Position numbers and translations under genes: made by a program. 64,000 nucleotides of DNA. It comes from an uncultured Planctomycetia bacterium (GTDB taxonomy: Bacteria > Omnitrophota > Gorgyraeia > B26-G9). The first letter of the stretch is position 1. The number at the start of each line of letters is the position of its first letter. Below the pieces are notes generated by a model. That model was not told where the DNA came from, made no database searches, and saw nothing but the letters and a program-made list of their open reading frames with translations. The stretch lies in the NCBI GenBank assembly GCA_964437495.1, contig CAYTGV010000009.1:6983-70982 (forward strand), read 5' to 3'. Positions 5,488 through 63,421 of the stretch are shown here, piece by piece.

Positions 5488-6698
5488 AAAAAGAAATAAA
5501 ATATATTGTAATTGTGCCGGATGGTATGGCTGACAATTCCTTGGCAGAATTCGGCGGCAAAACTCCTTTAGCAGTAGCCAGAACTCCGAACATGGATTTT
5601 ATGGCTGTGAACGGTAAAATCGGGTTATCTTCTTTTATTCCGCAGGGAATGACGCCGGGAAGTGATGTGGCTAATCTGGCTATTTTCGGTTATGATCCAA
5701 AAAAGTACTTTTCTGGAAGAGCGTCTTTTGAGGCCACAAATTTAGGCATAAAAATCAAGGAGGGTGAAATCGCTTTTCGCTGTAATTTCATTACAGAAGA
5801 AAACGATATTCTTATAGATTATAGTGCTGGGCATATTAAAACAAAAGAGGCGCATGTCTTGATCAAAGTTTTAAATAATAGGTTGGGAAATGATATTTTT
5901 AGATTCTATCCGGGAACAAGCTATAGGCATATATTGGTAATAAAGGATCCAAACCACGCTTATGAGGCGCTGAAATGTTTTCCACCGCATGATATTATGG
6001 GTAAAAGCGTAGCTGAGCACTTGCCGCATTTAAAAGCTGATGATAAATTGCTCATTCTGCTTAAGCAGGCAAAGGAGGTCCTGGATGAACATGAAGTTAA
6101 TATGGTACGCAGAGATTTAAGTGAAAATCCGGCAAATATGATCTGGCTATGGGGACAGGGAAAAAAACATGACCTTCCCTTTTTTAAAAAAAAATATGGG
6201 GCAGGCGGCAGTGTAATTTCTGCGGTTGATTTGATCAAGGGAATAGGAAAATCTATAGGGTTAATGCCGATTGATGTTCCGGGTGCAACCGGATATTATG
6301 ATACAGATTATGCTGCTAAGGCAAAATATGCCTTAATGAGCCTGGAGCGGGAAAATTTTGTTTTTATTCATGTTGAAGCAACTGACGAGGCTGGGCATAA
6401 TGGTGATGCTAGAGCTAAAATAATTGCGATTGAGAACATAGACAGATTGATCATTGGAAAAATCCTTGAAGAATATAAGGATAGAGACGATTTTCGGATC
6501 CTGGTATTGCCTGATCATCCTACACCGGTAGCATTAAAAACACATACAAGTGATCCTGTATGCTTTTTAATGTATGGACACGGAGTTGCGAAAGATGAAT
6601 TTTTATGGTATAATGAATTAGAGGCTGGGAAAAGCGATTTTAGGTTTAAAAATGGCTTTGAGCTTATGGATTGGTTTATGGGAAGGGATAGCTTTTAA
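5484..6698 (+). CDS. Cofactor-independent phosphoglycerate mutase, archaeal-type (ApgM family) homolog; by context a candidate non-orthologous homoserine kinase
   Basis: 404 aa. N-terminus [10 protein letters not shown] and C-terminal metal-binding region [12 protein letters not shown]...PDHPTP, typical of ApgM/metalloenzyme-superfamily mutases. Translationally coupled to thrC. Confidence 0.75.
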
Positions 6699-7219: not shown

Positions 7220-10200
7220 ATGTTTAATAGTATCCGCAGTTATACATATATTGTATTAGTAAGTTTTTTAGTAAACGCGTTGACTTTGGGCAATGCATTT
7301 GCATTGGATCTGGAGGCATGGCAAGACATGCTCATGTCTGATGAGGTCATCCAGGGTGTATTCGGAGGCGTAATCAGCTCTCAGAGTGAGTCTGGAGAAA
7401 TGGACACAGCAGTTGCTCCGGCACCTCGCGTGATCGAGCAGTCAAATGGCGATATAGCCATAAGGTTTAGTGATTCCGCACAAGCTAGTGTTTCCACAAC
7501 CACAGAAGGCCTTACAAAAGTAACATATTCAATGAGTGGCGCTAGAGTAAAAGTAAAGGATCTGGAAACTAATGAGGAATTTGAGTTTCAGTATGAGCTT
7601 GAGGGTTCTGTAGTTAAACTGGTTAACTCAAGCGGAGCGGTTGTGCGTCAGGAAACCTATAATAATTTTGGTCAGCTTTTGACAACTAAAGCGCAGGGCA
7701 CAAATACAAATGTGTATTCTTCCGATGGATTAAATACACTTGTTAAATCTATTGACCAGTGGGGCAATGAAACAATCTATGATGACGAGAGCCGTCCTGA
7801 TTTTGCGCAATATATAGAGGTTGACGGTACAGTAGTTGTTTTTAGAAATTATACCTTTGACAACATTGGAATACTTGAAAGCATCGTAGATGAAAACGGT
7901 AATAGCATTACTTTTCTGGCTGACGGAATAAGAGTTGATGAGATAAGAAACTTTGCCGGTACACTTACTAGTTCTTATCAATATGATGACGTCTCAGGTA
8001 ATCTTATAAGCGTTACAGATCATGTGTCTGATTCAATTACGATAGTTGATGGCGGTCAGTATACCCAGACTTATGATATTGTTCCGGTTTTAGATGATAA
8101 CAATAATCCAGTGCTTGATGCAGGCAATGAACCTGTGACAGAATTGGTTTTAAAGGGAACTTATAATTATGATGTAGCCGGGAATGTGTCTGCTATTACC
8201 AATATTGGTGAAGAGGGCTGTGTTACCGGATGGACAGATTATGATGAGTTCGGCCGAATATCCGGAACATATAACCATGAAGGTGCATTGGTACAATCTT
8301 ATATGTATAATGATCATGGTTTTTTACAGCAAACTATGAGCTTAGGCGATGCTCAGACTGTGGTGTCGGTTACGAAGTTTGACCTTAAAGGCCGTCCTAT
8401 GGAAGTTTGGCAGATCGGCAACGGGGGGAATAAAGTAAAAATTCAGGAATATGTCTATAAGGAAAATGGACTCCTTGATACTACTTTCTCATTAGGAATT
8501 CTTAGAGGTACGGATGAAACAAATGAGACAACTTTTAATAAGCCTATAGACACAAATGGAAACCTTGTCACAGACGGCAGATTTACTTACTTTACAACAT
8601 CAACGACTGAGTATGATAAAAAAGGTAGGCCATCGACAGTATATTCAATAGTGCGAAATGACAATGGGGATTATATCTCCGGCTATGATGATAACGGCGA
8701 TGTGATTACAACAGCTGATTCTACTCAGGCATTGCTTGAAAAACAGCAGTCTTACAGCTATGACAAAAGAGGATTTCTTTCTAAAACAACCAGCTATGGC
8801 TTTAACAACCGCGCGACTTCAACAACACAATTTGACCGCTATGGCAGACCTGAGAAGTCTTTTAATGCTCAAGGTGAGCAAACGCAGGAATATGTATATA
8901 ATCTTGATGGTTTTCTTGTCCAGACAAAAAATTTCGGCGAAAATGGTGTGCAAACTGGATATACTAATTACGATGCCAAGGGAAAACCAACAGACGTATA
9001 TAATCATCTAGACACTCTTACCCAAAAATACGTTTACGATGAAAACGGCTTAATGGTTATGAGTTTAAATCTTAACGGTACTGATGGTGTTAATTCTGAA
9101 ATAATATCAACAATGTCTGATGTAGAATTAATCGCAGCTATGTGGGATGATAGTTTTAGCGCTGAAGTATTAGCGGGTATCGGTGCTTATAATGAGATAG
9201 AGGGCGATGGTATCCCGGCATTAAATGAGGCATTAATGACTGCTATTTGGGATGAAAATAATGAACATACTACAGATTTCAAAAAGAAATGCGCAATGAT
9301 GCTTATAAAGACTTTTAGTGATGGCGCAAAGGGCGGCAATCAGTATTTAATTAATGATGTCGGCAGTGCTTATCATATGCTTGGCCAGTTTCTTGAAGAA
9401 GAAGGCAATAATGAAGGAGCAGTTGCGGCTTATAAGATTCAGGCATCTGAATTTACAGGCGCGATGGCTATAGCTGATGGTGTTAGCGTTTCTGTTACAG
9501 CCTGGTCAACAGACAGACTTGTAAATATGACAGATGCCAATGGGGATCCAGTAGCAGTAAATACTGCTGTTGTAACCGGATATACCATTTTTGGCGGAGA
9601 CTCAAAACCAATATCCTCTTATCAATGCTATGATGATGGGGTAAATGGTCTGCAGGTTACCAAGGTACAGGATTATGATTACTCCTATGAAGCAACAAAG
9701 AAAATTATCGTAGGTTATGATACAGATAATAAACCAATATATGAAAAAATAACCTTTACACAATTTTCTAACTTTGTTAGAAAAACTATTAATTACGGTG
9801 ATTATGAAGATACAAATGCAAATGGTACTGTAGGCGATGCCGGTGATGTTCAGGTAACAACAGGATTTACAGTATTTGATAACTACGGCAGACAGCTTGA
9901 AACCTATAATGAAGATGGCAATGTTGTTCAAAAATATTCTTATTCAAAGTCAGGATTTTTGAATTTTACTTACTCTTACGGTAAAGACAAGGCTCTTACC
10001 GGAACAACTGTTTTTGACAATTACTCTAGACCAATTGCCAGTTTTAATGCATACGGAAAAGCAACCAGGATACCGGCTGACCTTATCGCTGCATTAGCTG
10101 ACGGTCTTAGCATAGCAGATATTGAAAATCCGGAATGGCAGCCATTTTTAAAAGGACTGACTCAGACCTTTGAATACGGAACAGACGGCCTACTGGCAAC

Positions 10201-13200
10201 CAGTAAGTCCTGGGGAGAAGCAGTAGTGGTCGATGTCAGTGATTTAAGCGGTTTTGCTGAGGCCCTGGGCAGTGTTAAAGGTGATGAGAACTATGAAGTT
10301 GAGTTTGATTTCAACGAAGATGGCGAAATTAATCAGGCTGATATGGATATTTTAGAGGAAGATTTTACTGGTTCTGAAAATATGGTAAATCAGTTCATTA
10401 ACCTTACTGCAGAAAAATCTGATTTAAAAGATTTCGCTAATACTTTTGAATCAAAGGTACTATATAAGGCAACACAAACCGGATATACTGTATATGACAA
10501 ATACGGAAAAGCATCAGAGGTTTATAATTCTGAGCCTATTATTGTTGATGGAGTTACAGTAGCAGACGGTGTTTTAAATCAGAAATATGTTTACAATGAA
10601 AGAGGCTTCATGACCAGATCCGAGTCATATGGGATCAATATGGATGAATACGGAAATGTGCAAATGCAGGAAGATATCCCTGAGGCCTTACTGACTGGTT
10701 ATACCTTGTTTGATGCCGGTTCAAAGCCTACGGAAACCTATTCAGTTTATAATAGTCAGGAACTTGACGATCAAGGTAATCCTTCTATTGATGTAATGTC
10801 TAAAGTACAGGATTATACATATGAAGACGGTTTTCTGATCCAAACAAACAATTATGCCAGAAACGGCGCAGATGCAGGTTATACAACATTTGATAAATAC
10901 GGACGCCAAGAGGCATCATATAATGAAAATGAAGAGCCCCAGAAAACATCAACATATCAGTATTCTAAACAGGGATTTCTTACACAGACAAACAGCTATG
11001 GTTTAAATGGCGCCTATCTTGGAAAAACATTATTTAACAAAAAAAGCAGACCAATTGAATCCTACAACATGACGGGATCAAAAAATACGGAAAAGGGGCT
11101 GACCCAGAAATTTGTATATAATGATTATGGGTTTTTGACAAACAGCATAAGTTATGGAGAAGACCAGATTTTAACCGGACAGACATTTTATAACGGTTAT
11201 GGAAAAGCAATGTATAGCTCTAATGATGTGGGAATTACCAATTCAGCCTATGTATATGATTCAGCTGGATTTCTTGATCACACTCTGGCTCTGTCTTTTG
11301 AAGTAGGCGCAGGGCCTGATGAGGCAACGCATAATAACTTAAATGATTCAGAAGATACATTAAACACTCAGGTGCCTGAGAGCGGTTATTATGTAATCAC
11401 TGGCTATACAGTCTTCGGTGATACATCCAAGCCTGAGGCTGCTTATCAATGCTGGGGATGGACAGGCGATAATCTGCCGGCATACGGCGATGGTGCTAAA
11501 GTACAGGAATACAACTATACAGATGGTTTTCTTACAAGCACTTCAAATTACGGTAAGGATGAAACATTTATAGGTACAACTGTATTTGATAAATACGGAC
11601 GCCAGGAGGCATCATATAATGAAGTTGATGTTGATGGAGACGGCTTAGGTGAGCTTACGACAAAATTCAAATATTCAAAACAGGGTTTTATGAATACATC
11701 CTACAATTATGGCGCAAAAGGTTCTCTTGTTGGAACTACAACTTTCAATAGCTTGGGTAGACCGGAACAAAGCATTAACCAAAGAAAAGCGGTTACTCAA
11801 ACCTTCCATTACAATGAATTTACTGGAGCATTGGATGAAAGTTATTCCTGGGGTGAACCGACAGAGGTTGACGGTGTATCTACTCCAACCTTAACCGGAA
11901 CAACTGAATATGACACCTGGGGAAAAGCACAGACTCAGTTTAATTCCGAAGGCAGCATTGTTGCTAAATATGACTATGATGTGCATGGATTTATGACCCG
12001 CGCGTTTTCGTTCAGCGGCGGTACTGCTACTGATGTAGGAGTATGTACAGGATTTACAAATTATAACGCAGCCGGAAGACCGGAAGGGGCATATTCGGTA
12101 TTTAATCCGACAACTGCGAGCGGCGACTTAATGGGTAGTTGGTACGATGATTATTTCTATCTCGGGGTTGATGAGAATACCATTGGAGTTACAAAGGTAC
12201 AAGATTTCATCTATAACACAGAGGCTGAAGTTGGCGGAGATATCTTGGGGTATATCGGAACTTCTGATACCGGATTTTTGACAATGACAGTCAGTTATGG
12301 TGATAATTACAATGCGGATAACCCATCTGAATCTTTTATGGGATATACGACATTCAATAGATACGGACAACAGGATTATTCCTATAATGAACTAAATGAA
12401 CAGACAACCAAATTTAATTATTCAAGCTCAGGGTTTTTAAGTGAAACCTATAACTATGGTATAGACAAAACATTGACAGGAAAAACTGTTTTCAATGCTA
12501 CGGGAAGACCGGAAGCCTCATATAATGAGAAAGGCGCTTTACTGCAGACTTTCGAATATGTTGGCGGATTTCTTACAGCCAGTACAAGCTATGGTGATCC
12601 TGGAGATTTAGAAGTAGGCGGAATAACAGGAACTACTTCTTATGATATATACGGCAAACAAGACCAATCGCTCAATGCGGAGGGCACCCTTGTAGGTACA
12701 TTTGAATACTCAGTAAACGGTTTTATGACCAAATCCAATACCTGGGGTTATGGATTGGATAATACTACCGGAGAAACTGGCTCTACGATTACTGGCTTTA
12801 CAAATTACGATAACAAGGTCAGACCTGAAAACAGTTATGCTGTATATGAAAGTTGGCTTGGCTACAATGAATCGCTTTCTCAGGTGTTTTCATATGACAA
12901 CGATGGAGAACAAACAGGGTTTGTAACCGGCGCTCAGACATATGTTGTCAATAATGACCATAATTTTGGAACCGATAATATTGCCAATGATATTGATACT
13001 GGAGAGGTATTGCTATCAGGAACTGTCGAATATAACCACTATGGCAGACCAGAACAGACATACAATAAAGAAGGCGCAATAGTCTCAAAGAATATTTATA
13101 GTTCCAATGGTTTTATTACCAAGACTGATAACTATGGTGAGGATGGAAAAAAAGTCGGGTCTCTGTATTTTAGCGATGTTGGCAGGCCTCTTTATGCAAC

Positions 13201-14104
13201 CAATCATTCTGGTGGTGTTACAACAGAATATGTTTACAATAACGCTGGATTCTTGAATCAGACAATCGGATATATCGGCGGATCGATCAATGAAGAAACC
13301 GGAGATATCGAAGGAGTTATGAGCTCATATACAACATTTGATGTCTATTCTAAAGCTCAGGAAACCTTTCAATTGTGGACAATGAGTGAATCATCTGTTA
13401 ACTCGGAATACTATCAATTTGATGAAAATGGTACGGCTAACTATACTATAAACGGTGATGGATCTATCAGCGATGGCGGATTGACCTCAGTGAATCAGAA
13501 TGCTGATATCAGTCACTACAACGCTTTTGGATCGCTATTACAGACTGATAATAAAGGCCGACAGGGAAGCACTGTCAGTTCAACTATGTATGACTCTTTT
13601 TCTAAGCCGACATCTATCTGGAATGATAAAGGTTCGCTTGTTCAGGTTTACCATTATTCCGCACAGGGATTCCTGGATTACTCTATCAGCTATGCTACGA
13701 TGAAGAGCTATAATGATAGAGGAAACCCGGTTGATGATGGTGACTGGGATACAACAACAGAAACCTCAATAACGTTCTTTAACACGTATGGTCAGCAGAC
13801 AAATGGCTATGTTCTTAGCAATGACAGCAGCAGCGGCCAAGAAGGTTGGGACCTGGTTAACTATGTCCAGAATATTGACAATCAAACAGGCCTGGAATTG
13901 GGCGCAAAGCAGAGCGAGTATAAATATGATAATAACGGCTTCTTGTCCCAGACCAAGAACTATCAGGACAAACAGTATATTGGTTATACAACATTCGATC
14001 TAAGCGGAAGACAAGATGAATCATTTAACCAATCAGGTACATTGACCACCACTTACTTATATGATTTAAACGGCTTCTTGAACAAAAGCGCTTCGCATGG
14101 TTAA
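7220..14104 (+). CDS. Giant secreted repeat protein (2,294 aa) built from ~25 divergent YD-like repeats; likely surface/adhesin-type protein
   Basis: RBS GAGAGGAGG. N-terminal signal peptide (IVLVSFLVNALTLGNAFA). ~38-40-aa periodic unit [YxYxxxGF(L/M)xxTxxYG...GxTx(F/Y)DxxGRPxxSYNxxG] recurring along almost the whole length, with a non-repeat insert at ~9100-9560. Confidence 0.85.
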   Translation: MFNSIRSYTYIVLVSFLVNALTLGNAFALDLEAWQDMLMSDEVIQGVFGGVISSQSESGEMDTAVAPAPRVIEQSNGDIAIRFSDSAQASVSTTTEGLTKVTYSMSGARVKVKDLETNEEFEFQYELEGSVVKLVNSSGAVVRQETYNNFGQLLTTKAQGTNTNVYSSDGLNTLVKSIDQWGNETIYDDESRPDFAQYIEVDGTVVVFRNYTFDNIGILESIVDENGNSITFLADGIRVDEIRNFAGTLTSSYQYDDVSGNLISVTDHVSDSITIVDGGQYTQTYDIVPVLDDNNNPVLDAGNEPVTELVLKGTYNYDVAGNVSAITNIGEEGCVTGWTDYDEFGRISGTYNHEGALVQSYMYNDHGFLQQTMSLGDAQTVVSVTKFDLKGRPMEVWQIGNGGNKVKIQEYVYKENGLLDTTFSLGILRGTDETNETTFNKPIDTNGNLVTDGRFTYFTTSTTEYDKKGRPSTVYSIVRNDNGDYISGYDDNGDVITTADSTQALLEKQQSYSYDKRGFLSKTTSYGFNNRATSTTQFDRYGRPEKSFNAQGEQTQEYVYNLDGFLVQTKNFGENGVQTGYTNYDAKGKPTDVYNHLDTLTQKYVYDENGLMVMSLNLNGTDGVNSEIISTMSDVELIAAMWDDSFSAEVLAGIGAYNEIEGDGIPALNEALMTAIWDENNEHTTDFKKKCAMMLIKTFSDGAKGGNQYLINDVGSAYHMLGQFLEEEGNNEGAVAAYKIQASEFTGAMAIADGVSVSVTAWSTDRLVNMTDANGDPVAVNTAVVTGYTIFGGDSKPISSYQCYDDGVNGLQVTKVQDYDYSYEATKKIIVGYDTDNKPIYEKITFTQFSNFVRKTINYGDYEDTNANGTVGDAGDVQVTTGFTVFDNYGRQLETYNEDGNVVQKYSYSKSGFLNFTYSYGKDKALTGTTVFDNYSRPIASFNAYGKATRIPADLIAALADGLSIADIENPEWQPFLKGLTQTFEYGTDGLLATSKSWGEAVVVDVSDLSGFAEALGSVKGDENYEVEFDFNEDGEINQADMDILEEDFTGSENMVNQFINLTAEKSDLKDFANTFESKVLYKATQTGYTVYDKYGKASEVYNSEPIIVDGVTVADGVLNQKYVYNERGFMTRSESYGINMDEYGNVQMQEDIPEALLTGYTLFDAGSKPTETYSVYNSQELDDQGNPSIDVMSKVQDYTYEDGFLIQTNNYARNGADAGYTTFDKYGRQEASYNENEEPQKTSTYQYSKQGFLTQTNSYGLNGAYLGKTLFNKKSRPIESYNMTGSKNTEKGLTQKFVYNDYGFLTNSISYGEDQILTGQTFYNGYGKAMYSSNDVGITNSAYVYDSAGFLDHTLALSFEVGAGPDEATHNNLNDSEDTLNTQVPESGYYVITGYTVFGDTSKPEAAYQCWGWTGDNLPAYGDGAKVQEYNYTDGFLTSTSNYGKDETFIGTTVFDKYGRQEASYNEVDVDGDGLGELTTKFKYSKQGFMNTSYNYGAKGSLVGTTTFNSLGRPEQSINQRKAVTQTFHYNEFTGALDESYSWGEPTEVDGVSTPTLTGTTEYDTWGKAQTQFNSEGSIVAKYDYDVHGFMTRAFSFSGGTATDVGVCTGFTNYNAAGRPEGAYSVFNPTTASGDLMGSWYDDYFYLGVDENTIGVTKVQDFIYNTEAEVGGDILGYIGTSDTGFLTMTVSYGDNYNADNPSESFMGYTTFNRYGQQDYSYNELNEQTTKFNYSSSGFLSETYNYGIDKTLTGKTVFNATGRPEASYNEKGALLQTFEYVGGFLTASTSYGDPGDLEVGGITGTTSYDIYGKQDQSLNAEGTLVGTFEYSVNGFMTKSNTWGYGLDNTTGETGSTITGFTNYDNKVRPENSYAVYESWLGYNESLSQVFSYDNDGEQTGFVTGAQTYVVNNDHNFGTDNIANDIDTGEVLLSGTVEYNHYGRPEQTYNKEGAIVSKNIYSSNGFITKTDNYGEDGKKVGSLYFSDVGRPLYATNHSGGVTTEYVYNNAGFLNQTIGYIGGSINEETGDIEGVMSSYTTFDVYSKAQETFQLWTMSESSVNSEYYQFDENGTANYTINGDGSISDGGLTSVNQNADISHYNAFGSLLQTDNKGRQGSTVSSTMYDSFSKPTSIWNDKGSLVQVYHYSAQGFLDYSISYATMKSYNDRGNPVDDGDWDTTTETSITFFNTYGQQTNGYVLSNDSSSGQEGWDLVNYVQNIDNQTGLELGAKQSEYKYDNNGFLSQTKNYQDKQYIGYTTFDLSGRQDESFNQSGTLTTTYLYDLNGFLNKSASHG

Positions 14105-53934: not shown

Positions 53935-55644
53935 ATGGCGAGCAATCAAAAACTGGGCGAATTACTGGTGCAAAAAAAAATAATCACCCAGGAACAGCTC
54001 AACAGCGCGCTTATTAGACAAAAAAAAACAAATCTGCGGATAGGAGAAGAGCTGATCCGCAGCGGAATTGTCAGCGAAGAAAGCATTATTTCTACTCTTG
54101 CGGAATTAATGGATATTCCTTTTATTAGAATTCGTACCGCTAATATCGATCAACAAGTTATCAATAAAGTGCCCGCTAGGTTTGTAACTCATTACAATTT
54201 TTTCCCCCTGCGTGAAGACGAGGGAATTCTGGGCATTGCCGTAAGCGATCCTCTGGATCTTTATTCACTGGACGAAATAAAGCTTATGCTTAAGCAGCCT
54301 ATAAAAATATCTCTGGCGACTTCCCTTGAAATTAACGAAGCAATAAAAAGATATTACGGTGTCGGCGCTAAAACCATGGCCCAAATGGTTGATGATACAC
54401 CTCATTTACAAATACTTTCAAAAGCAAATGAGAATAATGAGGAGATTCAGATGGAAGCAGCAACTGATGACCCTTCGGTAATTAAATTTCTAGATCAGAT
54501 AATTCAGCAGGCTGTAAGAGAAAGAGCTACGGATATACATATTGAGCCATTTGAGGATAATCTCAGAGTGCGTTACCGTATTGACGGACTACTTTACGAA
54601 GTGCCTGTACCGGCCGCTATTGCCCACTTTCAGTCATCAATTATTGTGCGCATGAAAATAATGGCTGAGCTTGATATTGCAGAAAAGCGGCTGCCTCAGG
54701 ATGGCAGAATACAGATTAGAATTAATAATGAAGATTTTGATTTTAGAATTTCAATTCTGCCGACTGCTTTCGGAGAAAGCATAGAAATAAGAATATTATC
54801 CAGAAAGCAGATATTTTTTACTCTTTCTGACTTGGGATTAGACACTAAAGGTATGGATATTCTGAATTCTATGCTCAAAAAACCGCATGGCATTATTCTG
54901 GTCACCGGGCCGACCGGAAGCGGAAAAACAACCACACTTTATTCGTGCCTAAACAGAATTAATGCTATGGAAAGAAAAATTATCACTATTGAAGACCCGA
55001 TCGAATATAAACTGCACGGTATTACTCAGGTTCAAGTTCATCCCAAGATTAATTTAACTTTCGCAAACGGCCTGCGTTCCATGCTTCGCCATGACCCTGA
55101 TATCATGATGGTCGGAGAAATCAGGGATCTTGAAACTGCTGAGCTTTCTATCAGAACGGCCTTGACCGGGCATCTTGTTTTCAGCACCTTACATACAAAT
55201 GACGCGCCTGGGGCTATAGCTAGATTGCTTGACATGGGTATTGAACCTTATCTAGTCGCCAGCTCCCTAAACTGCGTTATTGCGCAGCGCCTAGTGCGGG
55301 TCATTTGCCCGGCCTGCAAACAACCTTATGAAGGACATGAGGAATTAATGGATGAATTCGGTATACATAAAAACAGATTTCAGGGAAAAACTCTGTACAA
55401 GGGAGCAGGCTGTGAAAATTGTAAGTTCACTGGATATTTAGGCCGAACAGCTATATTTGAGATATTGAATATTAATGATATTATTAAGGAAATGATCCTT
55501 GATCACAGCCCTTCTAACCTGATCAAGCAAAAAGCTATAACTCAGGGTATGCAGACATTGCGCTTAAGCGGCTGGGAAAAAGTTGTCAGCGGAATAACTA
55601 CACCTGAAGAAGTAATCCGGGTAACTCAACAGGATTCAGAATAG
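53935..55644 (+). CDS. GspE/PilB/MshE-family secretion ATPase with an N-terminal MshEN (c-di-GMP-binding T2SSE_N) domain
   Basis: Two tandem 24-aa MshEN motifs (KLGELLVQKKIITQEQLNSALIRQ and RIGEELIRSGIVSEESIISTLAEL) with a 5-aa spacer. Walker A GPTGSGKTTT. Asp box. Tetracysteine CPACK...CENCK. Confidence 0.85.
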   Translation: MASNQKLGELLVQKKIITQEQLNSALIRQKKTNLRIGEELIRSGIVSEESIISTLAELMDIPFIRIRTANIDQQVINKVPARFVTHYNFFPLREDEGILGIAVSDPLDLYSLDEIKLMLKQPIKISLATSLEINEAIKRYYGVGAKTMAQMVDDTPHLQILSKANENNEEIQMEAATDDPSVIKFLDQIIQQAVRERATDIHIEPFEDNLRVRYRIDGLLYEVPVPAAIAHFQSSIIVRMKIMAELDIAEKRLPQDGRIQIRINNEDFDFRISILPTAFGESIEIRILSRKQIFFTLSDLGLDTKGMDILNSMLKKPHGIILVTGPTGSGKTTTLYSCLNRINAMERKIITIEDPIEYKLHGITQVQVHPKINLTFANGLRSMLRHDPDIMMVGEIRDLETAELSIRTALTGHLVFSTLHTNDAPGAIARLLDMGIEPYLVASSLNCVIAQRLVRVICPACKQPYEGHEELMDEFGIHKNRFQGKTLYKGAGCENCKFTGYLGRTAIFEILNINDIIKEMILDHSPSNLIKQKAITQGMQTLRLSGWEKVVSGITTPEEVIRVTQQDSE

Positions 55645-55742
55645 CGCAGAAACAAAAAAATTATGAATGACGAATTATAGGTTACGAGTGAAGAGAAAAG
55701 AAAGAATTAATAAATATCAATTCAGGGATTTTCCTTCTAAAC

Positions 55743-55897
55743 AATAACTTGTGATTCATAACTAATAACTCATGACTCGTAATTTTTAACTATCGACCAT
55801 GGACTATTGACCATTGACCGTTTTTGTTCTTTTATCTTTTAACTTGTAACTTGTAACTTGTAATTCATAACTCGTAACCCATAACTCATAACTAAAT
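55743..55897 (+). repeat. Degenerate heptanucleotide tandem-repeat tract (ACTTGTA-like units, ~19 units in two blocks) ending at the pilC start codon
   Basis: Read directly. 55842-55897 = ACTTGTA x3, then ATTCATA, ACTCGTA, ACCCATA, ACTCATA, ACTAAAT, then ATG. 55743-55819 holds 11 further 7-nt units ending in ACT/ACC. Confidence 0.7.
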
Positions 55898-57103
55898 ATG
55901 CCTATATATAAATATAAAGCTAAGGTTAAGCCAGACACTTTCCGCAACGGAACCATAGAGGCAGAAAGTGAAAAAGCAGCTATAAATAAGCTTTTACTGC
56001 TTAATTATCATCCGGTATCCTTAAAAATAAAAACAGAGGATACCGAGAGAAAATTTTCTTTTTCTAAAAAGATTACATCTAAAGATATTTATATTTTTTT
56101 GCGACAGCTTGCAAATCTAAATATTGCCGGACTTCCAATAGTAAAATCCCTAGCCAATATCAGTTCACAGTCACATAATCCAAGATTGCGCTTGATTGTT
56201 CTGGATTTAAAAGAAAAGCTTCAGAAGGGAAATACATTTTCTGAAGCGCTGACATTTTATCCACATGTATTTGGCCAATTTGAAATCAATATGATAAAGG
56301 CCGCGGAAAACACAGGAACACTTCCTGAGGTAATAGAAAAAATTGCTGATCTTAAGGAGCATGATATAGCTTTTAATCAAAGAGTACGCTCGGCACTTGC
56401 TTATCCGGTTTTACTTTTAAGCGTAGGAGTGATTACACTGCTGATATTAACAACATTTGTTCTGCCGAAATTTATAACTCTTTTCAATGACTTAGACCAG
56501 CAATTGCCGATTTTGACCCAGATGCTCATAAATACAAGTATATTTTTGAAAAATTACTGGATAATTTTAAGTGCAATAATCGGCTTTATTGTTTTCTTTG
56601 CCCAAAGGCAGTTAAGAACACAAAAGGGACGTTTTATTTTTGACGATTTAAAATTAAAAATCCCTTTACTTAAAGACATTGTTTTAAAAATTCAAATCGC
56701 CCGGTTTGCCAGAACCCTGGCAAGCCTGATTGAAAATGGAGTACCTATTATAAACTCATTGAAAATAACTGCAGAAATAGCTACTAACCTTGTTTTTTCT
56801 GCTGAAATAAAGCATGTGCATACTCAGGTTACCAAAGGACAGCATATAAGTGCGGCTTTGAAAGACAGCACTATATTTGATAAAAATACGCTTGATTTGA
56901 TCAGTGTTGGGGAGGAAAGCGGAAGACTTGATGAAATGCTTTTCCGTATTGCCAAAATGAACGAAAACGAATCTTCCGGATTAATTGAAACCCTGTTATT
57001 TCTTATCGAACCGGCTTTGATTCTTATTTTAGGTATTGTTGTTGCGATTATAGTAATGGCAATTTTACTACCGATTTTTCAGATGAATTTTTTGGTTCAG
57101 TAA
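55898..57103 (+). CDS. Type IV pilus/T2SS platform protein (PilC/GspF family)
   Basis: 401 aa. Two GspF repeats, three TM helices. N-terminus MPIYKYKA..DTFRNGTIEAESEKAAINKL is PilC-like. Confidence 0.85.
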   Translation: MPIYKYKAKVKPDTFRNGTIEAESEKAAINKLLLLNYHPVSLKIKTEDTERKFSFSKKITSKDIYIFLRQLANLNIAGLPIVKSLANISSQSHNPRLRLIVLDLKEKLQKGNTFSEALTFYPHVFGQFEINMIKAAENTGTLPEVIEKIADLKEHDIAFNQRVRSALAYPVLLLSVGVITLLILTTFVLPKFITLFNDLDQQLPILTQMLINTSIFLKNYWIILSAIIGFIVFFAQRQLRTQKGRFIFDDLKLKIPLLKDIVLKIQIARFARTLASLIENGVPIINSLKITAEIATNLVFSAEIKHVHTQVTKGQHISAALKDSTIFDKNTLDLISVGEESGRLDEMLFRIAKMNENESSGLIETLLFLIEPALILILGIVVAIIVMAILLPIFQMNFLVQ

Positions 57104-57120
57104 AAACATAAAGGAGAAAA

Positions 57121-57666
57121 ATGAAAAATAAATTCTTTATCCCGTTTAGTACTTACAAAGATGAGAAGGAATGTGTATCCCCGAGCATGGAAAAAAAGAC
57201 AAAACACTTTCAGGATAAAAACCGTAGATTAATTCTGCCAAGGATCAGGCTATCTCTAAGGGGGTTTACCTTGATCGAATTAATGCTTGTGGTAATAATT
57301 ATCGGCACTCTTGCTGCTTTAGTTATTCCCCGCTTAGCCGGCCGAGCTGAACAGGCGCGTAATACAGCTGTCAAAGCTGATATATTATCAAACATTCCTC
57401 TAGCTCTTGACCTTTATGAGCTTGATAACGGTTTCTATCCCTCAAGTCAGCAGGGACTAGAGGCATTGATTGAAAAACCGACAACCCAGCCTTTAGCAAA
57501 AAACTGGAACGGTCCTTATCTTAAAAAAAAGCCGGTTGATCCCTGGGGTAATCAATACCGATACATATGTCCCGGGGTTCATAATACTGCGGATTATGAT
57601 CTTTTCTCGGTTGGTAAAGACGGATCTGAAGGCGGTAATGATGATATTGGCAATTGGGAGGACTAA
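57121..57666 (+). CDS. GspG-like major pseudopilin/pilin with an unusually long (~48-aa) leader before the G|FTLIEL processing site
   Basis: Strong RBS AAGGAG. ...RLILPRIRLSLRG|FTLIELMLVVIIIGTLAALVIPR, then a GspG-like body (NWNGPYL...DPWGNQYRY). Confidence 0.75.
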   Translation: MKNKFFIPFSTYKDEKECVSPSMEKKTKHFQDKNRRLILPRIRLSLRGFTLIELMLVVIIIGTLAALVIPRLAGRAEQARNTAVKADILSNIPLALDLYELDNGFYPSSQQGLEALIEKPTTQPLAKNWNGPYLKKKPVDPWGNQYRYICPGVHNTADYDLFSVGKDGSEGGNDDIGNWED

Positions 57667-57673
57667 TCTGCCA

Positions 57674-58207
57674 ATGAAAAATAAAACAAAACGCTTTGCG
57701 GATAAAAAGCTTAGATTAGTTCTGCCAAAAGGCAGGCTATCACTAAGGGGGTTTACCCTTATAGAGCTACTGTGCGTAATTGTCATAATAGCTGTATTTT
57801 TTTCAATGAGTATCCCCAAATTATCTAAAACAGCCGGGAATTTTTATCTTAGAAGTAAAGCAGCTAAAATCCGGGCTTTGTGTGAATTAATAAAAAGAAC
57901 TGCAATCACTGAAAACAAGACCTATAAGTTGTTAATTGATTATTCAAACAACTCCTATTCAGTTCTTCAGAACTCTATTGATGCTATTGATGAGTTTTCG
58001 CCTGCAAGTGACTCCTTACTAAGAAAACATACTCTTCCTGAGAGCTTGTCCTTTTTTTCCCCTGAGATTCAAACCGGTATCCATGAAATAATTTTCTCAC
58101 AAAGCGGGAGTATATCTTCAGCTGCTTTTTTTATTACTAACAACAAAGACACTCCGGCCAAATTATCAACAACTTTAAGCGGAGAGATCATTTTAGAATA
58201 TATATGA
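57674..58207 (+). CDS. Minor pseudopilin (GspH-like) with a 26-aa leader homologous to the preceding gene's leader
   Basis: MKNKTKRFADKKLRLVLPKGRLSLRG|FTLIELLCVIVIIAV. Start trimmed to the ATG at 57674 (the tracked ORF starts at 57536, inside the previous gene). Confidence 0.6.
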   Translation: MKNKTKRFADKKLRLVLPKGRLSLRGFTLIELLCVIVIIAVFFSMSIPKLSKTAGNFYLRSKAAKIRALCELIKRTAITENKTYKLLIDYSNNSYSVLQNSIDAIDEFSPASDSLLRKHTLPESLSFFSPEIQTGIHEIIFSQSGSISSAAFFITNNKDTPAKLSTTLSGEIILEYI

Positions 58208-58569
58208 AAAATAAAACAAAAAATACCCCAGGATTCATTTTAATCGAAATACTTGTATCACTGTTATTGATGACTACCGGAATTCTTTTTTTGATCAATT
58301 CTCTGTCTACAATTACAAAAAGCAACCATAAGATACGAAACAACCGCCTTGCCTATACTTTGCTGGATAATGTTTTTAATCAGCTCTATTCCGGAGAGGC
58401 CATTATTCCAGGTAAAGTTGTTTTAAATAATAAAGAGTTTTTTTGGGACTTTGCAGAAAATAAAACAGATGATGGATTGAGCCATATCCTCATCAATGTT
58501 AGCTGGGGCAAAAATAATTCCGCCTCAACTGCCAGCCTATCTCATACTACAATTGACTTAAACCGATAA
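58204..58569 (+). CDS. Minor pseudopilin (GspI-like), conventional short prepilin leader
   Basis: MKNKTKNTPG|FILIEILVSLLLMTTG. 121 aa. Confidence 0.6.
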   Translation: MKNKTKNTPGFILIEILVSLLLMTTGILFLINSLSTITKSNHKIRNNRLAYTLLDNVFNQLYSGEAIIPGKVVLNNKEFFWDFAENKTDDGLSHILINVSWGKNNSASTASLSHTTIDLNR

Positions 58570-58633: not shown

Positions 58634-59824
58634 ATGGCGATATCAGTAGGGGTGGGAACTAGTAAAGAATTTGAATCTTTTGCAGCGGGTACATTAGCTG
58701 CAAAGAATGCTTTGGATAAATTAGGAAGCAATGATCCTGATATATTATTTTGCTTTGCGTCCTCGCGTTTTGATCATATACAGCTAATACGCGGCATTAA
58801 AAGTATTCTGCCGAACGCACCGCTTATCGGGTGCACAACAGCTGGCGAAATCACCAGTGCCGGCACAGAAAAAAAATCTGTAAGTATATTGGCCATAAAG
58901 TCAAACAGCCTGCATGCTGCTATAGGCATTGGTAAGAACGTGAGTAAGAACTCCCGCGGAGCCGGCCAAGAGGTAGCCCGAGATACGATAATAAAAACGA
59001 AAAAAGGGGCTATTCGCCATGCCTTTATGATGCTTCCGGACGGACTCAATGGAAACGGAGTAGAGATCATCAGGGGAGTTCAGGAAGTACTGGGTACAAG
59101 TTTCCCCATAGTCGGCGGATCTTCAGCTGACGAATTTATGTTTAAAAAAACTTTTCAGTATTATGAGGAAAGTGTATTAACTGACTGTGTCGGAGGGATT
59201 CTTTTCTCCGGAGACATTAGTGTTGGCATCGGAGCTCGGCACGGCTGGTACCCCCTTGGCAAACCGAGAATCGTAACTGAGGCAGATCACAACATAATTA
59301 AAAAACTTGACGGGAAGCCGGCAGCAAGAATTTATGAGGATTATTTCGGCAAAAGAGCCGCTGATCTAAATAATGAGCCTCTGGCCAGAATGTCTGTAAT
59401 GTATCCGCTTGGCATGTCGATACCAGAAGAAGAAGAGTGTATTATCCGTAACGCACTCAGCGTTGACAAAAACGGAGCTTTGATTTGCGCAGGTGAGGTT
59501 TCCTGCGGTTCAGAAATTAGAATAATGATGGGATCTAAGGAAGCCGCATTAAAAGCTGCTAAAAAAGCGGCAGAAATAGCCCTTAGCGGTCTCAGAAAAC
59601 AAAAAGCTGATATTGTATTTGTATTTGATTCCGTCTCACGGGAAAGACTCTTTGGACGCAAAAGTGAAGAAGAAATAGAGGTTATCAAAAGTATATTCGG
59701 CAAAGACACTCCGATAATTGGTTTTTATACATACGGAGAACAGGCTCCTCTGGGTGCAACGATAAACCTCGGACAAACATTTTTTCATAATGAAACAATA
59801 GTAGTTTTCGCAATTGGAGAATAG
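58634..59824 (+). CDS. FIST-domain sensory protein (FIST_N + FIST_C)
   Basis: 396-aa soluble protein. Recognised by overall FIST pattern (ILFCFASSRFD...GCTTAGEI...); no TM helices. Confidence 0.6.
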   Translation: MAISVGVGTSKEFESFAAGTLAAKNALDKLGSNDPDILFCFASSRFDHIQLIRGIKSILPNAPLIGCTTAGEITSAGTEKKSVSILAIKSNSLHAAIGIGKNVSKNSRGAGQEVARDTIIKTKKGAIRHAFMMLPDGLNGNGVEIIRGVQEVLGTSFPIVGGSSADEFMFKKTFQYYEESVLTDCVGGILFSGDISVGIGARHGWYPLGKPRIVTEADHNIIKKLDGKPAARIYEDYFGKRAADLNNEPLARMSVMYPLGMSIPEEEECIIRNALSVDKNGALICAGEVSCGSEIRIMMGSKEAALKAAKKAAEIALSGLRKQKADIVFVFDSVSRERLFGRKSEEEIEVIKSIFGKDTPIIGFYTYGEQAPLGATINLGQTFFHNETIVVFAIGE

Positions 59825-59830
59825 TATAGT

Positions 59831-61411
59831 ATGAAAATTAATATATGGCTGATACTCATCATCGGAGCAGCGGTATTGAGTGTTGTTGTTATTGTTGACA
59901 ATATGGTCGCTAAGCTTATGGGCGGTTTTATCCTGCTTGTTCTGCTTGCTTATCTTGCTGAAATATCGCGTGAGGAGCGGGAACAAATTGATAAAATGCA
60001 GCATGCCTTGGATAAACTGAGAAATGCTTATGGCGAACTTGATGAACAGGCAAAAATTATTATTCGTACTGATTTAGAGTTAAATCGGACGCAAGAACAG
60101 CTTGATAAAAAAATCAATGGGCTTTACACTTTACACGAACTAGGTAAATTGATAAGTGCTACCCTAGATACAGAGAAGCTTTTTTCTCAAATCACGGAAC
60201 CGCTTATTCTTAAGCTTGGATTTGAAAAAACAATAATATTTCTAAAAAATGAATCAAAACAAAATCTTGAATGTAAAGCAGCTATCGGACTTTCCTCATT
60301 GCAAATAGACAAGATAGAACAGGCAAATATAGAGCAAGACTTTCTTCAAACTGTTCTAAAAAATGGTTCTTCTGTATGGGTTAAAAATTCTGAAGCTGCT
60401 ACAGAGGAGCAAAAAGCTTGGCTGAATTTATTTGAAGTCTCTTCATTTGTAATTGTGCCTATGGTTGTCAAGGAGTCTGTTGAGGGATATATTTTTGTTG
60501 GTAATCAGACAAATTATAATTCTGTCTCTGAAGGAGATATAGATTCTCTTTTTATACTTTCTAATCAGTTGGGCATTGCCCTTGATAATGCCCAACTTTA
60601 TGCCCAGTTAAAGCGTTCGCATGATCAATTAGAGATTCGTGTAGAAGAACGCACAAGAGAATTAGCCGCGGCAAACAAAAAGCTGATCGAGCTTGATCAA
60701 ATGAAATCCGACTTTGTTTCTGCAGTTTCTCATGAATTGCGAACACCGCTGACATCAATTAAAGGCTATGCGGCAATTCTAAGTGCAGGCCGTTTAGGTG
60801 AGGTCAGTACGGTTCAGGCAGAGAAGCTTAATAAAATAAATATTCACAGTGATGAATTGATAAAACTTGTAAATGACCTTTTAGATATTGCCCGCATTGA
60901 ATCTGGCAAGATCAGTATGAGTATTAAGCATGCTTCTCTTAATGAGATCGTCAAGAGTATCGCAGATCTATTCTTCCCGCAAACTGATGAAAAGAATATT
61001 GATCTCAAACTTGATATACCGGAACAAGATATTGCTGTATGGATGGACCCCAGCCAGATATCACGTGTATTCATAAATCTTATCGGTAATGCAATGAAAT
61101 TCACCCCTGAAAAAGGCATAATAACAATAGTGTTAAAACCTGCTGAAAAATTTATTAATGTCGAAATCATTGACTCTGGTATCGGCATAAGCGAAGAGGA
61201 TATACCTCGTTTATTTAATGAATTCTATCGTGTAGACAATGCCATTAATGCTGAGAAAAAAGGTACCGGACTGGGACTGCCGCTTGTTAAAAAGATCATT
61301 GAGGCGCATAAAGGTCAGATCTGGGTCACAAGTGAAGTCGGCAAGGGAACTACTTTCCATTTCACTTTATCTGTTGAACAAATTGATGATTCGCAAATAG
61401 CCATAAACTGA
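59831..61411 (+). CDS. Sensor histidine kinase (2 TM helices, coiled coil, GAF, HisKA, HATPase_c)
   Basis: H-box SAVSHELRTPLTSIKGYA. N, G1 and G2 boxes (GNAMKFT, DSGIGI, GTGLGL). Confidence 0.85.
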   Translation: MKINIWLILIIGAAVLSVVVIVDNMVAKLMGGFILLVLLAYLAEISREEREQIDKMQHALDKLRNAYGELDEQAKIIIRTDLELNRTQEQLDKKINGLYTLHELGKLISATLDTEKLFSQITEPLILKLGFEKTIIFLKNESKQNLECKAAIGLSSLQIDKIEQANIEQDFLQTVLKNGSSVWVKNSEAATEEQKAWLNLFEVSSFVIVPMVVKESVEGYIFVGNQTNYNSVSEGDIDSLFILSNQLGIALDNAQLYAQLKRSHDQLEIRVEERTRELAAANKKLIELDQMKSDFVSAVSHELRTPLTSIKGYAAILSAGRLGEVSTVQAEKLNKINIHSDELIKLVNDLLDIARIESGKISMSIKHASLNEIVKSIADLFFPQTDEKNIDLKLDIPEQDIAVWMDPSQISRVFINLIGNAMKFTPEKGIITIVLKPAEKFINVEIIDSGIGISEEDIPRLFNEFYRVDNAINAEKKGTGLGLPLVKKIIEAHKGQIWVTSEVGKGTTFHFTLSVEQIDDSQIAIN

Positions 61412-61429
61412 ACATAGGCAAGGAGCATA

Positions 61430-62359
61430 ATGACAAAACCTAAGATATTAATAGTTGATGATGAACCTGATATAAGAGATGTCTTAAAGATCACTTTAGA
61501 ATGCGAAGGGTTTGAGGTTCATGAGGCAAAAGACGGAGTAGAAGGACTTGAAAAGGTGCATAAAACCTCGCCGGATCTTGTTATCCTTGATTATAAAATG
61601 CCGAAAATGGATGGGCACGAAGTTTGTCAAATACTAAAAAAGGATATTCTATTGCGCCATATGCCGATCATTATGCTTACTGGCAAAGGAGAGACACAGG
61701 ATAAGATAAAAGGTATAAATGCAGGAGCAGATGATTATCTTGTAAAGCCATTTGATCCTCAAGAGCTTGTAGCACGTATAAAAATGATTGTCAGACGCAG
61801 CACACGTGATCTTGATGCCAATCCACTCAGCCGCTTACCAGGCAATGTAACGATAATGACGGAACTTGACGCGGCAATCAAAGGCACTTCGCCATTTGCC
61901 ATTTGCTATGTAGATCTGGATAAGTTTAAGGCCTTTAACGATACCTATGGATTCGAACACGGTGATGAGGTTATTCGTGAGACAGCACGTATTATTTTAA
62001 ATGGTGTCCATGAGCTTGGCAATAGAGAGGATTTTGTCGGACATATCGGTGGAGATGATTTTGTTTTTCTTACAACTACCAATCTGTCTGAGACAATCTG
62101 TAATAAGATAATCAATGACTTTGACAAGATTGCTCCTTCTTTTTACAATCAGGTTGACCGGGAACGAGGTTATACTGTGGCTAAAGACAGGCAGGGTAAT
62201 GAGCAGCATATTAAACTGCTGTCAGTTTCTATAGGTATTGTAACCAACGAATTCCGTCAAATAAATCATGTTGTGGAAATCGGTGAGATCGGGGCTGAAT
62301 TGAAAAAACTCGCCAAAGCAACTGAGGGCAGCAACTTTGTCAAAGACAGCAGAAAGTAA
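61430..62359 (+). CDS. Response regulator (REC) fused to a GGDEF-type diguanylate-cyclase domain with a variant GGDDF motif
   Basis: REC (ILIVDDEPD...LDYKMP...phospho-Asp D54 context). GGDEF fold landmarks NPLSRLPGN, YVDLDKFKAFNDTYGFEHGDEV, HIGGDDFVFL. Confidence 0.8.
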   Translation: MTKPKILIVDDEPDIRDVLKITLECEGFEVHEAKDGVEGLEKVHKTSPDLVILDYKMPKMDGHEVCQILKKDILLRHMPIIMLTGKGETQDKIKGINAGADDYLVKPFDPQELVARIKMIVRRSTRDLDANPLSRLPGNVTIMTELDAAIKGTSPFAICYVDLDKFKAFNDTYGFEHGDEVIRETARIILNGVHELGNREDFVGHIGGDDFVFLTTTNLSETICNKIINDFDKIAPSFYNQVDRERGYTVAKDRQGNEQHIKLLSVSIGIVTNEFRQINHVVEIGEIGAELKKLAKATEGSNFVKDSRK

Positions 62360-62380: not shown

Positions 62381-63421
62381 TCAAGCAAAAGCATGCTTTT
62401 CAAAGGCATATTTCCTGGCAGTGCGCTGATCGATCTTATTACTTTTCATTAAAAAATTCAGCGATTGGTCCATTGTCTGCATTCCCTCTTTACCGCAGGA
62501 TTCAATTATATTCTTTATCTGAAATGTTTTACTTTCCCGAATAAGATTCCTAATAGCCGTATTGTTAACCATGACCTCTGTAGCAAGATGATTGCTCGAA
62601 CCATCACGCGAAGGAATAAGGGTTTGAGAAACCACTACTGCAACTGCCTCGGCAAATTGCACTCTTATCTGTGCCTGTTGTTCTGCTGGGAAAACATCAA
62701 TAATACGGCTTACAGATTGAGAAGCATTACGGGTATGTAAAGTAGCAAATACAAGGTGTCCGGTCTCAGCCGCAGTTACAGCATTAGAAATAGTATCCAG
62801 ATCTCTCATTTCACCTACGAGAATGATATCCGGGTCTTCTCTTAAAGCGGCACGCAGACCGCTAGAAAAACTTTTGGTCTCTGAACCTACTTCACGCTGA
62901 TTGATTATACAGCGTTTATGCTCATGCAAATATTCAATTGGATCTTCAAGCGTAATAATATGAGCGCTTCTTTCCAAATTTATTTTATTAATGATCGAAG
63001 CCAGGGTGGTGGATTTTCCGCTTCCAGTCGGACCGGTAACTAATACAAGACCTCTTTGCAAGTTACAGACATTTTTTACTGCCGCAGGAAGCCCCAGGGA
63101 ATCAAGCGGTTTTATTCTTTGCGGCACCAATCTAAAGGCAGCGCATATTCCTTTTCTGTCTTTATAAATATTAATCCTAAACCTTGCAAAATTTCCTATA
63201 TTAATCCCCATATCTATTTCTTTGCCCTTATCTATAGAACTCAATCTTTCTTCCGGCATAATATCCAAAAGAATTTTTCTAATATCAGCATCTTGTAAAG
63301 CAATGTCCGTCAGCGGCTGCATCTCTGTAGGTCGTCTTATCATCGGAGGTAATCCAACACAAAGATGCATATCTGAAATATCTCTGGTAACAATCTCTTG
63401 AAAAAGCTTTTCTGAATCCAT
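62381..63421 (-). CDS. pilT: Twitching-motility retraction ATPase PilT
   Basis: Aligns with P. aeruginosa PilT (ISDMHLCVGLPPMIR...GLVLVTGPTGSGKSTTLAS...REDPDIILVGEMRDLDT...AETGHLVFATLHT). Confidence 0.9.
   Translation of the reverse strand: MDSEKLFQEIVTRDISDMHLCVGLPPMIRRPTEMQPLTDIALQDADIRKILLDIMPEERLSSIDKGKEIDMGINIGNFARFRINIYKDRKGICAAFRLVPQRIKPLDSLGLPAAVKNVCNLQRGLVLVTGPTGSGKSTTLASIINKINLERSAHIITLEDPIEYLHEHKRCIINQREVGSETKSFSSGLRAALREDPDIILVGEMRDLDTISNAVTAAETGHLVFATLHTRNASQSVSRIIDVFPAEQQAQIRVQFAEAVAVVVSQTLIPSRDGSSNHLATEVMVNNTAIRNLIRESKTFQIKNIIESCGKEGMQTMDQSLNFLMKSNKIDQRTARKYAFEKHAFA

Follow-up and report, generated by a model that had tools for sequence, protein, structure and literature searches.

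In a 64,000-nucleotide (nt) stretch of contig CAYTGV010000009.1 from an uncultured bacterium (the window), profile searches identify a type II secretion/type IV filament operon in the order gspEFGHI (53935-58569), with the best protein matches coming from Candidatus Omnitrophota. Three of these genes encode pseudopilins: gspG (gene 1), a gspH-like gene (gene 2) and a gspI-like gene (gene 3). An earlier note on this DNA, made from the sequence alone, had described unusually long prepilin leaders in the first two, and our reading of the open reading frames (ORFs) confirms them. With a slash marking the cleavage site, 48 residues precede G/FTLIEL in gspG, and 26 precede it in gene 2 when the latter is read from ATG 57674 (leader MKNKTKRFADKKLRLVLPKGRLSLRG/FTLIEL). 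The third leader, MKNKTKNTPG/F, is of ordinary length at 10 residues, as the note had also stated. We consider it likely that each of the two long leaders goes back to a palindromic mobile element that inserted at the codons of the prepilin cleavage site and persists as an in-frame relic.

Leaders shorter than 10 residues are typical of type IVa pilins and pseudopilins, although they do not define them. The gspG leader is 48 residues long and would still have at least 26 if the closest canonical start codon were used, against five in its orthologue from the relative L001. Cleavage is predicted after Gly48 (codon 57262-57264), with Phe+1 starting at 57265; the N-terminus, ...SLRG/FTLIELMLVVIIIGTLAALVIP, has Gly-1, Phe+1, Glu+5 and a hydrophobic helix of ~20 residues, and TIGR02532 also matches it. 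By manual count the two leaders carry net charges of ~+8 and ~+9, and such strongly basic leaders fit the positive-inside rule. The earlier note had considered that an internal start codon might give a conventional short leader. This is impossible: no ATG, GTG or TTG occurs between ATG 57187 and the Gly codon of gspG or between ATG 57674 and that of gene 2, so that both leaders have at least 26 residues.

Comparison of gspG with its relatives reveals both empty and filled versions of the same site. Most of the best 120 GspG homologues have leaders of 3-12 residues, and the closest of them, P0002, is 90% identical and begins MKNKG/FTLIEL. The gspG gene of L001 starts with AAAGGATTTACACTAATTGAA, which likewise encodes MKNKG/FTLIEL with a five-residue leader, and its mature part is ~90% identical to that of the window. 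At least 11 of the same 120 homologues have leaders of the form MKNK-GFTPLE...(20-45 residues)...SLTG/FTLIEL. At the point that is empty in L001, the genes of L003 and L004 read GGATTTA, then an insert CC(T/C)CGTTAGAG...CTCTAACGGGG, then TTTAC. These inserts have perfect inverted repeat ends of 12-13 nt, and TTTA is present twice, versus once in the empty L001 site. L125 and L126 contain intact inserts that are collinear with window positions 57137-57264. Among the orthologues that bear an extension, its sequence and length differ. The gene 2 orthologues of L001, L003, L004 and L125 all have an intact element at the equivalent site, and the gene 1 and gene 2 inserts of L125 appear identical over the ~80 nt of the gene-2 copy that the contig contains.

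The window's gspG retains the parts of such an insertion (Table 1). The left TTTA lies in what is left of the G-F-T codons of the original site, which now read F-F-I, and is followed by a decayed left arm, TCCCGTTTAGTA (57140-57151; TTTATCCCGTTTAGTA when read from 57136). The right arm, TCTCTAAGGGGG (57253-57264), has a single mismatch. Together with one TTTA (4 nt), the 125-nt relic amounts to 129 nt or 43 codons, exactly the 48 residues of the window leader minus the five of L001. In gene 2 we identified a decayed left arm, GCTTAGATTAG (57709-57719), a subterminal hairpin made of CTGCC (57722-57726), an AAAA loop and GGCAG (57731-57735), and a right arm, TCACTAAGGGGG (57740-57751), with two mismatches. 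These two relics are the only copies of the element in the window; in gene 3, the site reads GGA TTC ATT and so lacks TTTA.

Seen against these parts, in the leader block that the earlier note had read as conserved, the end ...LSL(R/T)G is a terminal inverted repeat and the stretch before it a subterminal hairpin, both belonging to a palindromic mobile element found in many phyla. The duplication of leader DNA that the note had described is real, but its extent had been set too short: the actual repeat spans 99 nt. Within the window, 57250 and 57737 are the sole positions of the 21-mer CTATCNCTAAGGGGGTTTACC, against 0 occurrences expected in shuffled sequence. The true start of gene 2 is uncertain among ATGs 57638, 57641 and 57674. 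The two upstream ATGs lie in frame within the 3' end of gspG and would give a leader of 38 or 37 residues, respectively; they have GAAGG 5 nt upstream and match the starts called in L003 and L004. The third ATG, whose first base is 57674 and not 57675, has GGAGG ~12-13 nt upstream, a long spacing.

Table 1. Features of the gsp operon and the element relics in the window, and nuclease cassettes in other loci.
Feature	Position	Strand	Evidence or remarks
gspE-type assembly ATPase	53935..55644	+	PF00437 T2SSE, 452 bits, and MshEN domain; first gene of the operon; syntenic in L001
gspF-type platform protein	55898..57103	+	PF00482 T2SSF, two copies, 188 bits
Shine-Dalgarno AAGGAG of gspG	57111..57116	+	4 bases ahead of ATG 57121
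gspG major pseudopilin (gene 1), 181 amino acids (aa)	57121..57666	+	TIGR01710 162.1 bits (curated cut-off 88.85 bits), PF08334 116 bits, N_methyl
Left TTTA of flanking direct repeat, gspG	57136..57139	+	Alignment with intact L125, L126, L003, L004 and empty L001
Palindromic-element relic in gspG, 125 nt	57140..57264	+	Right arm; collinear full-length match to intact L125 element, 57137-57264 (nhmmer, alignment)
Right TTTAC, regenerated Phe+1/Thr+2 codons	57265..57269	+	Junction GGGG/TTTAC seen in 134 copies elsewhere
99-nt direct repeat, copy 1	57187..57285	+	From internal ATG of gspG into FTLIEL codons; 80% identity to copy 2
99-nt direct repeat, copy 2	57674..57772	+	Begins at gene 2 ATG; 80% identity to copy 1
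gspH-like minor pseudopilin (gene 2)	57674..58207	+	N_methyl 26 bits; TIGR01708 gspH 41 bits, below cut-off
Element relic in gene 2	57699..57751	+	Right arm, folding hairpin, matches to short forms in L039 and L125
gspI-like minor pseudopilin (gene 3)	58204..58569	+	TIGR01707 33.5 bits, below cut-off
GIY-YIG cassettes bracketed by 12-nt arms	L127:159-441; L132:1480-1764; L139:~966-1265; L140:~966-1265; L141; L088	- (L088)	

We propose the following course of events. The element would have landed on TTTA within the GGN-TTT-ACN of a pilin gene. Read in the pilin frame, its left arm encodes (G)FT-PLE, one base from the genuine pilin N-terminus FTLLE, and its right arm SLTG, followed by FT from the duplicated TTT AC. 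Because the element ends in ...ACG GGG and the duplicated TTT AC comes next, a new G/FT cleavage site with a new Gly-1 would arise at its 3' edge. Translation through the element would be driven by the original start codon and its Shine-Dalgarno sequence, and copies would survive in pilin genes when their length is a multiple of three and the pilin frame contains no stop. The gene is predicted to yield a prepilin whose leader is long, basic and cytoplasmic, and which an ordinary prepilin peptidase would cut at the regenerated Gly, so that the mature pseudopilin would be unchanged and the insertion nearly silent. On this reading the copies in the window are old and inert, with decayed palindromes and only the open frame kept, and those of gene 1 and gene 2 are related through a fairly recent copying or gene-conversion event.

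Intact copies of the element are bounded by a perfect terminal inverted repeat of 12-13 nt, CCCCGTTAGAGA(A) and (T)TCTCTAACGGGG, and by a flanking 4-nt direct repeat, TTTA. The interior, from 5 to >250 nt long, is highly variable in sequence; element sizes range from a bare hairpin of 29-31 nt (CCCCGTTAGAGAACGAAGTTCTCTAACGGGG) to >200 nt, and tandem arrays also occur. We scanned a 596-Gb collection for exact matches to the 17-mer TCTCTAACGGGGTTTAC and obtained at least 120 genome stretches, with 132 matches among those listed. A uniform model predicts ~70 chance matches in the whole collection; a complementary arm lies at most 330 nt away in ~110 of the 132 listed matches, compared to a chance expectation of ~1% of cases. 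By record title, the hosts among the matches listed include ~49 Omnitrophota, ~23 Patescibacteria, ~11 Planctomycetota, ~8 Nitrospirota, ~8 Deltaproteobacteria-type bacteria and ~7 Elusimicrobiota, while Riflebacteria, Ratteibacteria, Auribacterota and other groups contribute one locus each. Within a genome, copies are near-identical (for example in L029, L034, L068 and L116), several lie at contig ends, and several metagenome-assembled genomes (MAGs) contain at least 4-6 exact 17-mer copies apiece. Flanks across 134 copies are NTTTA on the left and TTTAC on the right. The element occurs in intergenic DNA as well as at pilin G-F-T codons. Viral contigs gave no match to the 17-mer, and thus no sign of a phage vector. 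We considered whether 17-mer matches lacking a partner arm could be large gene-carrying copies, and rejected this: they are degenerate arms, contig ends and probable chance matches.

One form of 110-113 nt (L008, L010, L044, L086, L099, L115 and others) contains two inner helices with compensatory changes; nine pairs have changed on both sides, and 90% of cells are paired compared to 30-48% in slid controls. This form is kept across Omnitrophota, Planctomycetota, Nitrospirota, Elusimicrobiota and Deltaproteobacteria-type MAGs, and has the same orientation relative to the TTTA flank in all 22 copies seen. Searched against Rfam 15, neither the window region nor seven loci that carry intact elements showed a relevant match. 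A phmmer search of six-frame translations of ~0.8 Mb of loci and the window found no Y1 (HUH) transposase, a weak test made with an IS608 TnpA query. In the literature that we searched for the arm sequences, the peptide motifs and GIY-YIG genes with inverted repeats, with incomplete coverage, the element is undescribed.

Pilin genes are a favored location. Thirty-seven of the 132 listed copies directly precede a pilin N-terminus. Within the same loci, 37 of ~67 pilin G-F-T sites are occupied, compared to ~95 of ~2,775 intergenic TTTA sites (14,555 TTTA in total), a per-site occupancy ~15-20 times higher at pilin sites; this figure is rough and comes from loci chosen for bearing the element. 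In pilin contexts, 27 of 30 copies are free of stop codons in frame and 27 of 30 have a length that is a multiple of three, and where a stop is present, a start codon within the element takes over (L030, L045). Non-pilin copies are open in the pilin frame in 34 of 58 cases versus 4-6 in the other forward frames, a suggestive excess that is confounded by family structure and palindrome symmetry; by that symmetry, one reverse frame is equally open. Pilin paralogues of one genome usually share a sub-type (L007, L016, L061, L117, L125 and the window), which points to copying on a local scale, or to gene conversion, by way of their conserved N-terminal coding DNA. Moreover, the pilin site GG-TTTA-CCCTNATHGAG (GGNTTTACCCTNATHGAR) resembles the junction between adjacent elements, GGGG-TTTA-CCCCGTTAGAG. 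Target preference, better survival at these sites and gene conversion between paralogues are all plausible sources of the excess.

The same ends also bracket a gene. A 280-nt copy in L088 contains a GIY-YIG nuclease ORF in frame with a prepilin, and a search with this nuclease returned more than 4,500 protein clusters; these 86-aa GIY-YIG proteins share 74-80% identity across Omnitrophota, Planctomycetota, Elusimicrobiota, Patescibacteria and WOR-3. An SLTG-type motif (S[LF][TRAN]G) lies at or near the C-terminus in 92 of the best 120 homologues, 55 of which end exactly in KRFLSLTG. In six of six distinct loci, the left arm lies 19-25 nt upstream of the nuclease ATG; the last four codons (SLTG) are those of the right arm, which five of the six keep intact and which has degenerated in L141. 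When an intact right arm goes with a nuclease gene that is not fused to a pilin, the gene ends at a TAA or TGA that is part of the flanking TAAA or TGAA, and the L132 cassette is flanked by TGAA on both sides. Since the window leaders end in ...LSL(R/T)G, they end in the same sequence as the 3' end of the nuclease gene. The nuclease domain belongs to PF01541, with sub-threshold matches to TIGR01453 (group I intron endonuclease) and to PDB 1zg2 (a UPF0213 protein), and the cassettes are wedged between housekeeping genes such as lepA and lepB (L139) or yidC and jag (L140). Nuclease-prepilin fusions of the form ...RSLSLTG/FTLIELL... are found in P0126, P0142 and on the minus strand of L088 (~5180-5914, reverse-complement coordinates).

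From its shared ends, the 86-aa nuclease is a candidate for the enzyme that mobilizes the element. We tentatively suggest, as a possibility somewhat short of even odds, that cassette and short elements together form an undescribed mobile family spanning phyla: a ~290-nt cassette with 12-nt inverted repeats, whose only gene, for the 86-aa nuclease, would take its stop codon from a target TTTA or TTCA, and short derivatives that would favor prepilin Gly-Phe-Thr codons, where the prepilin peptidase would hide the insertion in what amounts to a protein-level splicing step. In some genomes the whole nuclease makes up the leader, and peptidase cleavage could release it into the cytoplasm. We looked for short elements that could be deletion derivatives of the cassette; beyond the arm, the one match is a 25-nt stretch that L083 has in common with L088. 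GIY-YIG genes in L051 and L026 at first seemed tied to nearby hairpins but are not themselves bracketed by the arms. These more distant genes (L051:5944-6279, and two genes on the minus strand of L026) have tRNA-like fragments, GGTTAGCTCAGCTGGTCTACGACTCGTAGAG, on their flanks, which points to small GIY-YIG cassettes of another type.

We weighed four other explanations for the long leaders. In the first, gspG would be translated mainly from the internal ATG 57187, giving both genes leaders of 26 residues and leaving 57121-57186 as an untranslated or separately translated remnant. The 99-nt repeat does begin exactly at this ATG and at the ATG of gene 2. However, AAGGAG lies ahead of 57121, and the same AAGGAG-ATG layout is present in L001, L003 and L004, which identifies 57121 as the ancestral start of a short-leader gspG; 57187 has no recognizable Shine-Dalgarno sequence, and the frame is open from 57121 on. 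We therefore regard this start as unlikely and, even if it were used, the leader would still have 26 residues and derive from the element.

Equally doubtful is the idea that the element has been co-opted, with a hairpin after the start codon that tunes translation or mRNA stability, or with excision and insertion acting as a phase switch. The high occupancy of pilin sites would fit such a role, as would the very stable stems of intact copies (-24 to -45 kcal/mol) and the compensatory changes in the helices of the 110-113-nt form. In the window, however, the structure has decayed while the genes are conserved: the fold z-score is +1.3 for the gspG relic, whose outer stem is lost, and -2.3 for the gene 2 relic, in which a small hairpin is left, compared to -3.6 and -5.6 for the intact L125 and L004 gene-2 copies and -1.1 for L003. 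This loss of folding makes an RNA-structure role in the window unlikely. Non-pilin copies have no orientation bias relative to neighboring genes (27 versus 30 and 28 versus 32), which fits selfish DNA rather than a cis-regulator; interior sequences vary greatly, and the pilin excess is equally explicable by target preference or paralogue gene conversion.

The earlier note had suggested a conserved, functional leader of the type IVb or Tad kind, with a role in targeting or regulation or with a prepilin peptidase of its own. Its case draws on two strongly basic leaders of at least 26 residues in adjacent genes, and on the lack of a peptidase gene in the window; a six-frame motif scan and Pfam searches of ten ORFs of 240-290 aa also found none, in what is a partial test. 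Leaders of type IVb and Tad/Flp prepilins have 15-30 residues, and published prepilin leaders as a whole span 6-26, which places 48 residues outside the known range (PMC4471445). The window leaders resemble the type IVb/Tad kind in length, and in being hydrophilic and ending in Gly ahead of a hydrophobic helix. In contrast, the body is that of GspG (PF08334), encoded in a gspE-F-G-H-I operon rather than beside Tad- or Bfp/Tcp-type genes with a TadV/CpaA peptidase, with Phe+1, Glu+5 and a variable, neutrally evolving leader, and the GspG-type body, operon and +1/+5 residues exclude the window pseudopilins from the type IVb/Tad group. Moreover, the closest orthologue has no extension, in the other orthologues it varies, and the block once taken as conserved belongs to a mobile element that also occurs in intergenic DNA of many phyla. 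We compared the proportions of nonsynonymous (pN) and synonymous (pS) differences, which are 0.44 and 0.40 for the gspG leader between the window and L125, and 0.18 and 0.17 between the two window copies (57187-57264 and 57674-57751). With pN close to pS, the leader peptide drifts freely and the open frame alone is kept; the two window copies diverged far later than the species split. On this evidence a conserved leader function is very improbable.

For mature GspG, pN is 0.047 and pS 0.71 between the window and L001, a sign of strong purifying selection and therefore of functional insert-bearing genes. That the insertions, which lie within the coding sequence of the signal peptide, turned both pseudopilin genes into pseudogenes is thus the least credible explanation of all, as the ORFs are intact, mature GspG is under this selection in lineages with and without the insert, and 27 of 30 independent copies in pilin contexts have retained an open frame.

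Several points weigh against our reading of the leaders as element relics and of the nuclease as part of the same family. The nhmmer E-values of the window copies against their intact relative are marginal, at 0.22 and 0.021; with copies this degenerate, the case for homology depends chiefly on position, on collinearity and on right arms that are nearly perfect. An empty-site orthologue of gene 2 did not turn up, although gene 2 homologues were not specifically searched, and the left limit of the gene 2 relic is, like the start of that gene, uncertain. Every relative derives from a metagenome assembly. We infer the making and cleavage of long prepilins from sequence. Finally, the link to the GIY-YIG gene consists of common ends, flanks and host range; outside the arms, a match of more than 22 nt to a GIY-YIG cassette is present in only one of 109 short elements.

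In its way of working, the element appears closest to the Rickettsia palindromic elements (RPE), which Ogata et al. reportedly described in Science in 2000 as inserting in frame into protein-coding genes, and to other in-frame repeats that resemble MITEs, the miniature inverted-repeat transposable elements. Like RPE, it is short, multi-copy, palindromic, selfish DNA that is found at coding and intergenic sites and, in genes, is in frame, translated and tolerated by the host. It differs from RPE in that its sequence family is unrelated and that it has one defined coding target, the cleavage-site codons in class III signal peptides. Since the element restores this cleavage site, the mature protein should lack the extra peptide instead of retaining it. 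The element also spans many phyla where RPE are confined to one genus, and it is linked to a GIY-YIG gene. Like MITEs, which are non-autonomous and derive from transposons with inverted-repeat ends, it has inverted repeats at its termini and a short direct repeat beside them, is present in numerous near-identical copies per genome and differs in presence or absence between orthologous sites; the nuclease cassettes may be its larger, gene-carrying counterpart. The gene between the cassette ends, however, encodes an 86-aa GIY-YIG nuclease instead of a DDE transposase, and most short copies have an interior that is unrelated to the form with the gene.

To our knowledge, no GIY-YIG-based transposon family is known in bacteria. 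The nuclease shares the PF01541 catalytic domain with I-TevI/Seg and UPF0213/YhbQ proteins, and its gene is wedged between housekeeping genes like a selfish gene. In contrast to GIY-YIG homing endonucleases, it consists of 86 aa without a DNA-binding domain and is not associated with an intron or intein, and a 12-nt inverted repeat brackets its gene, with the right arm encoding the last four residues. The element is also reminiscent of IS200/IS605 and REP/RAYT systems, as hairpin repeats lie beside a short fixed sequence and the 110-113-nt form has a single orientation. The fixed sequence of IS608 is TTAC. Unlike in IS200/IS605, the flanks look like a duplicated TTTA, and GIY-YIG cassettes occur in both orientations relative to TTTA.

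The interest of the window relics lies in the family that they reveal. An origin in this element explains puzzling long-leader prepilins in Omnitrophota, Patescibacteria and other uncultured phyla, and it predicts that prepilin peptidases accept leaders of at least 50 residues of arbitrary sequence, including an 85-residue folded nuclease. For annotation, such N-termini should be taken neither as start-codon errors nor as new pilin classes. For mobile elements, a leader that the host cleaves off would be a safe harbor inside coding sequence, and a small, widespread GIY-YIG cassette with inverted-repeat ends could be a new transposable or homing unit.

The operon is conserved beyond its pseudopilin genes: in L001, the gene order is trpB-trpA-gspE-gspF-gspG-gene 2-gene 3-FIST-kinase, with the same operon as in the window. 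The DNA directly 3' of the pseudopilin genes codes for a FIST-domain protein, a histidine kinase with a GAF domain and a response regulator of the REC-GGDEF type, and L001 and L004 show the same synteny. These FIST, GAF-kinase and REC-GGDEF genes occupy 58634-62359 on the plus strand, with a PilT-like T2SSE ATPase gene converging on them from 62381-63421 on the minus strand. The FIST, kinase and REC-GGDEF set may be a signaling module coupled to the pseudopilus. No secretin was seen in the window. Farther upstream, an ORF of 2,294 aa without a Pfam match lies at 7220-14104 on the plus strand; giant ORFs of this sort are a noted trait of Omnitrophota (PMC10066038).

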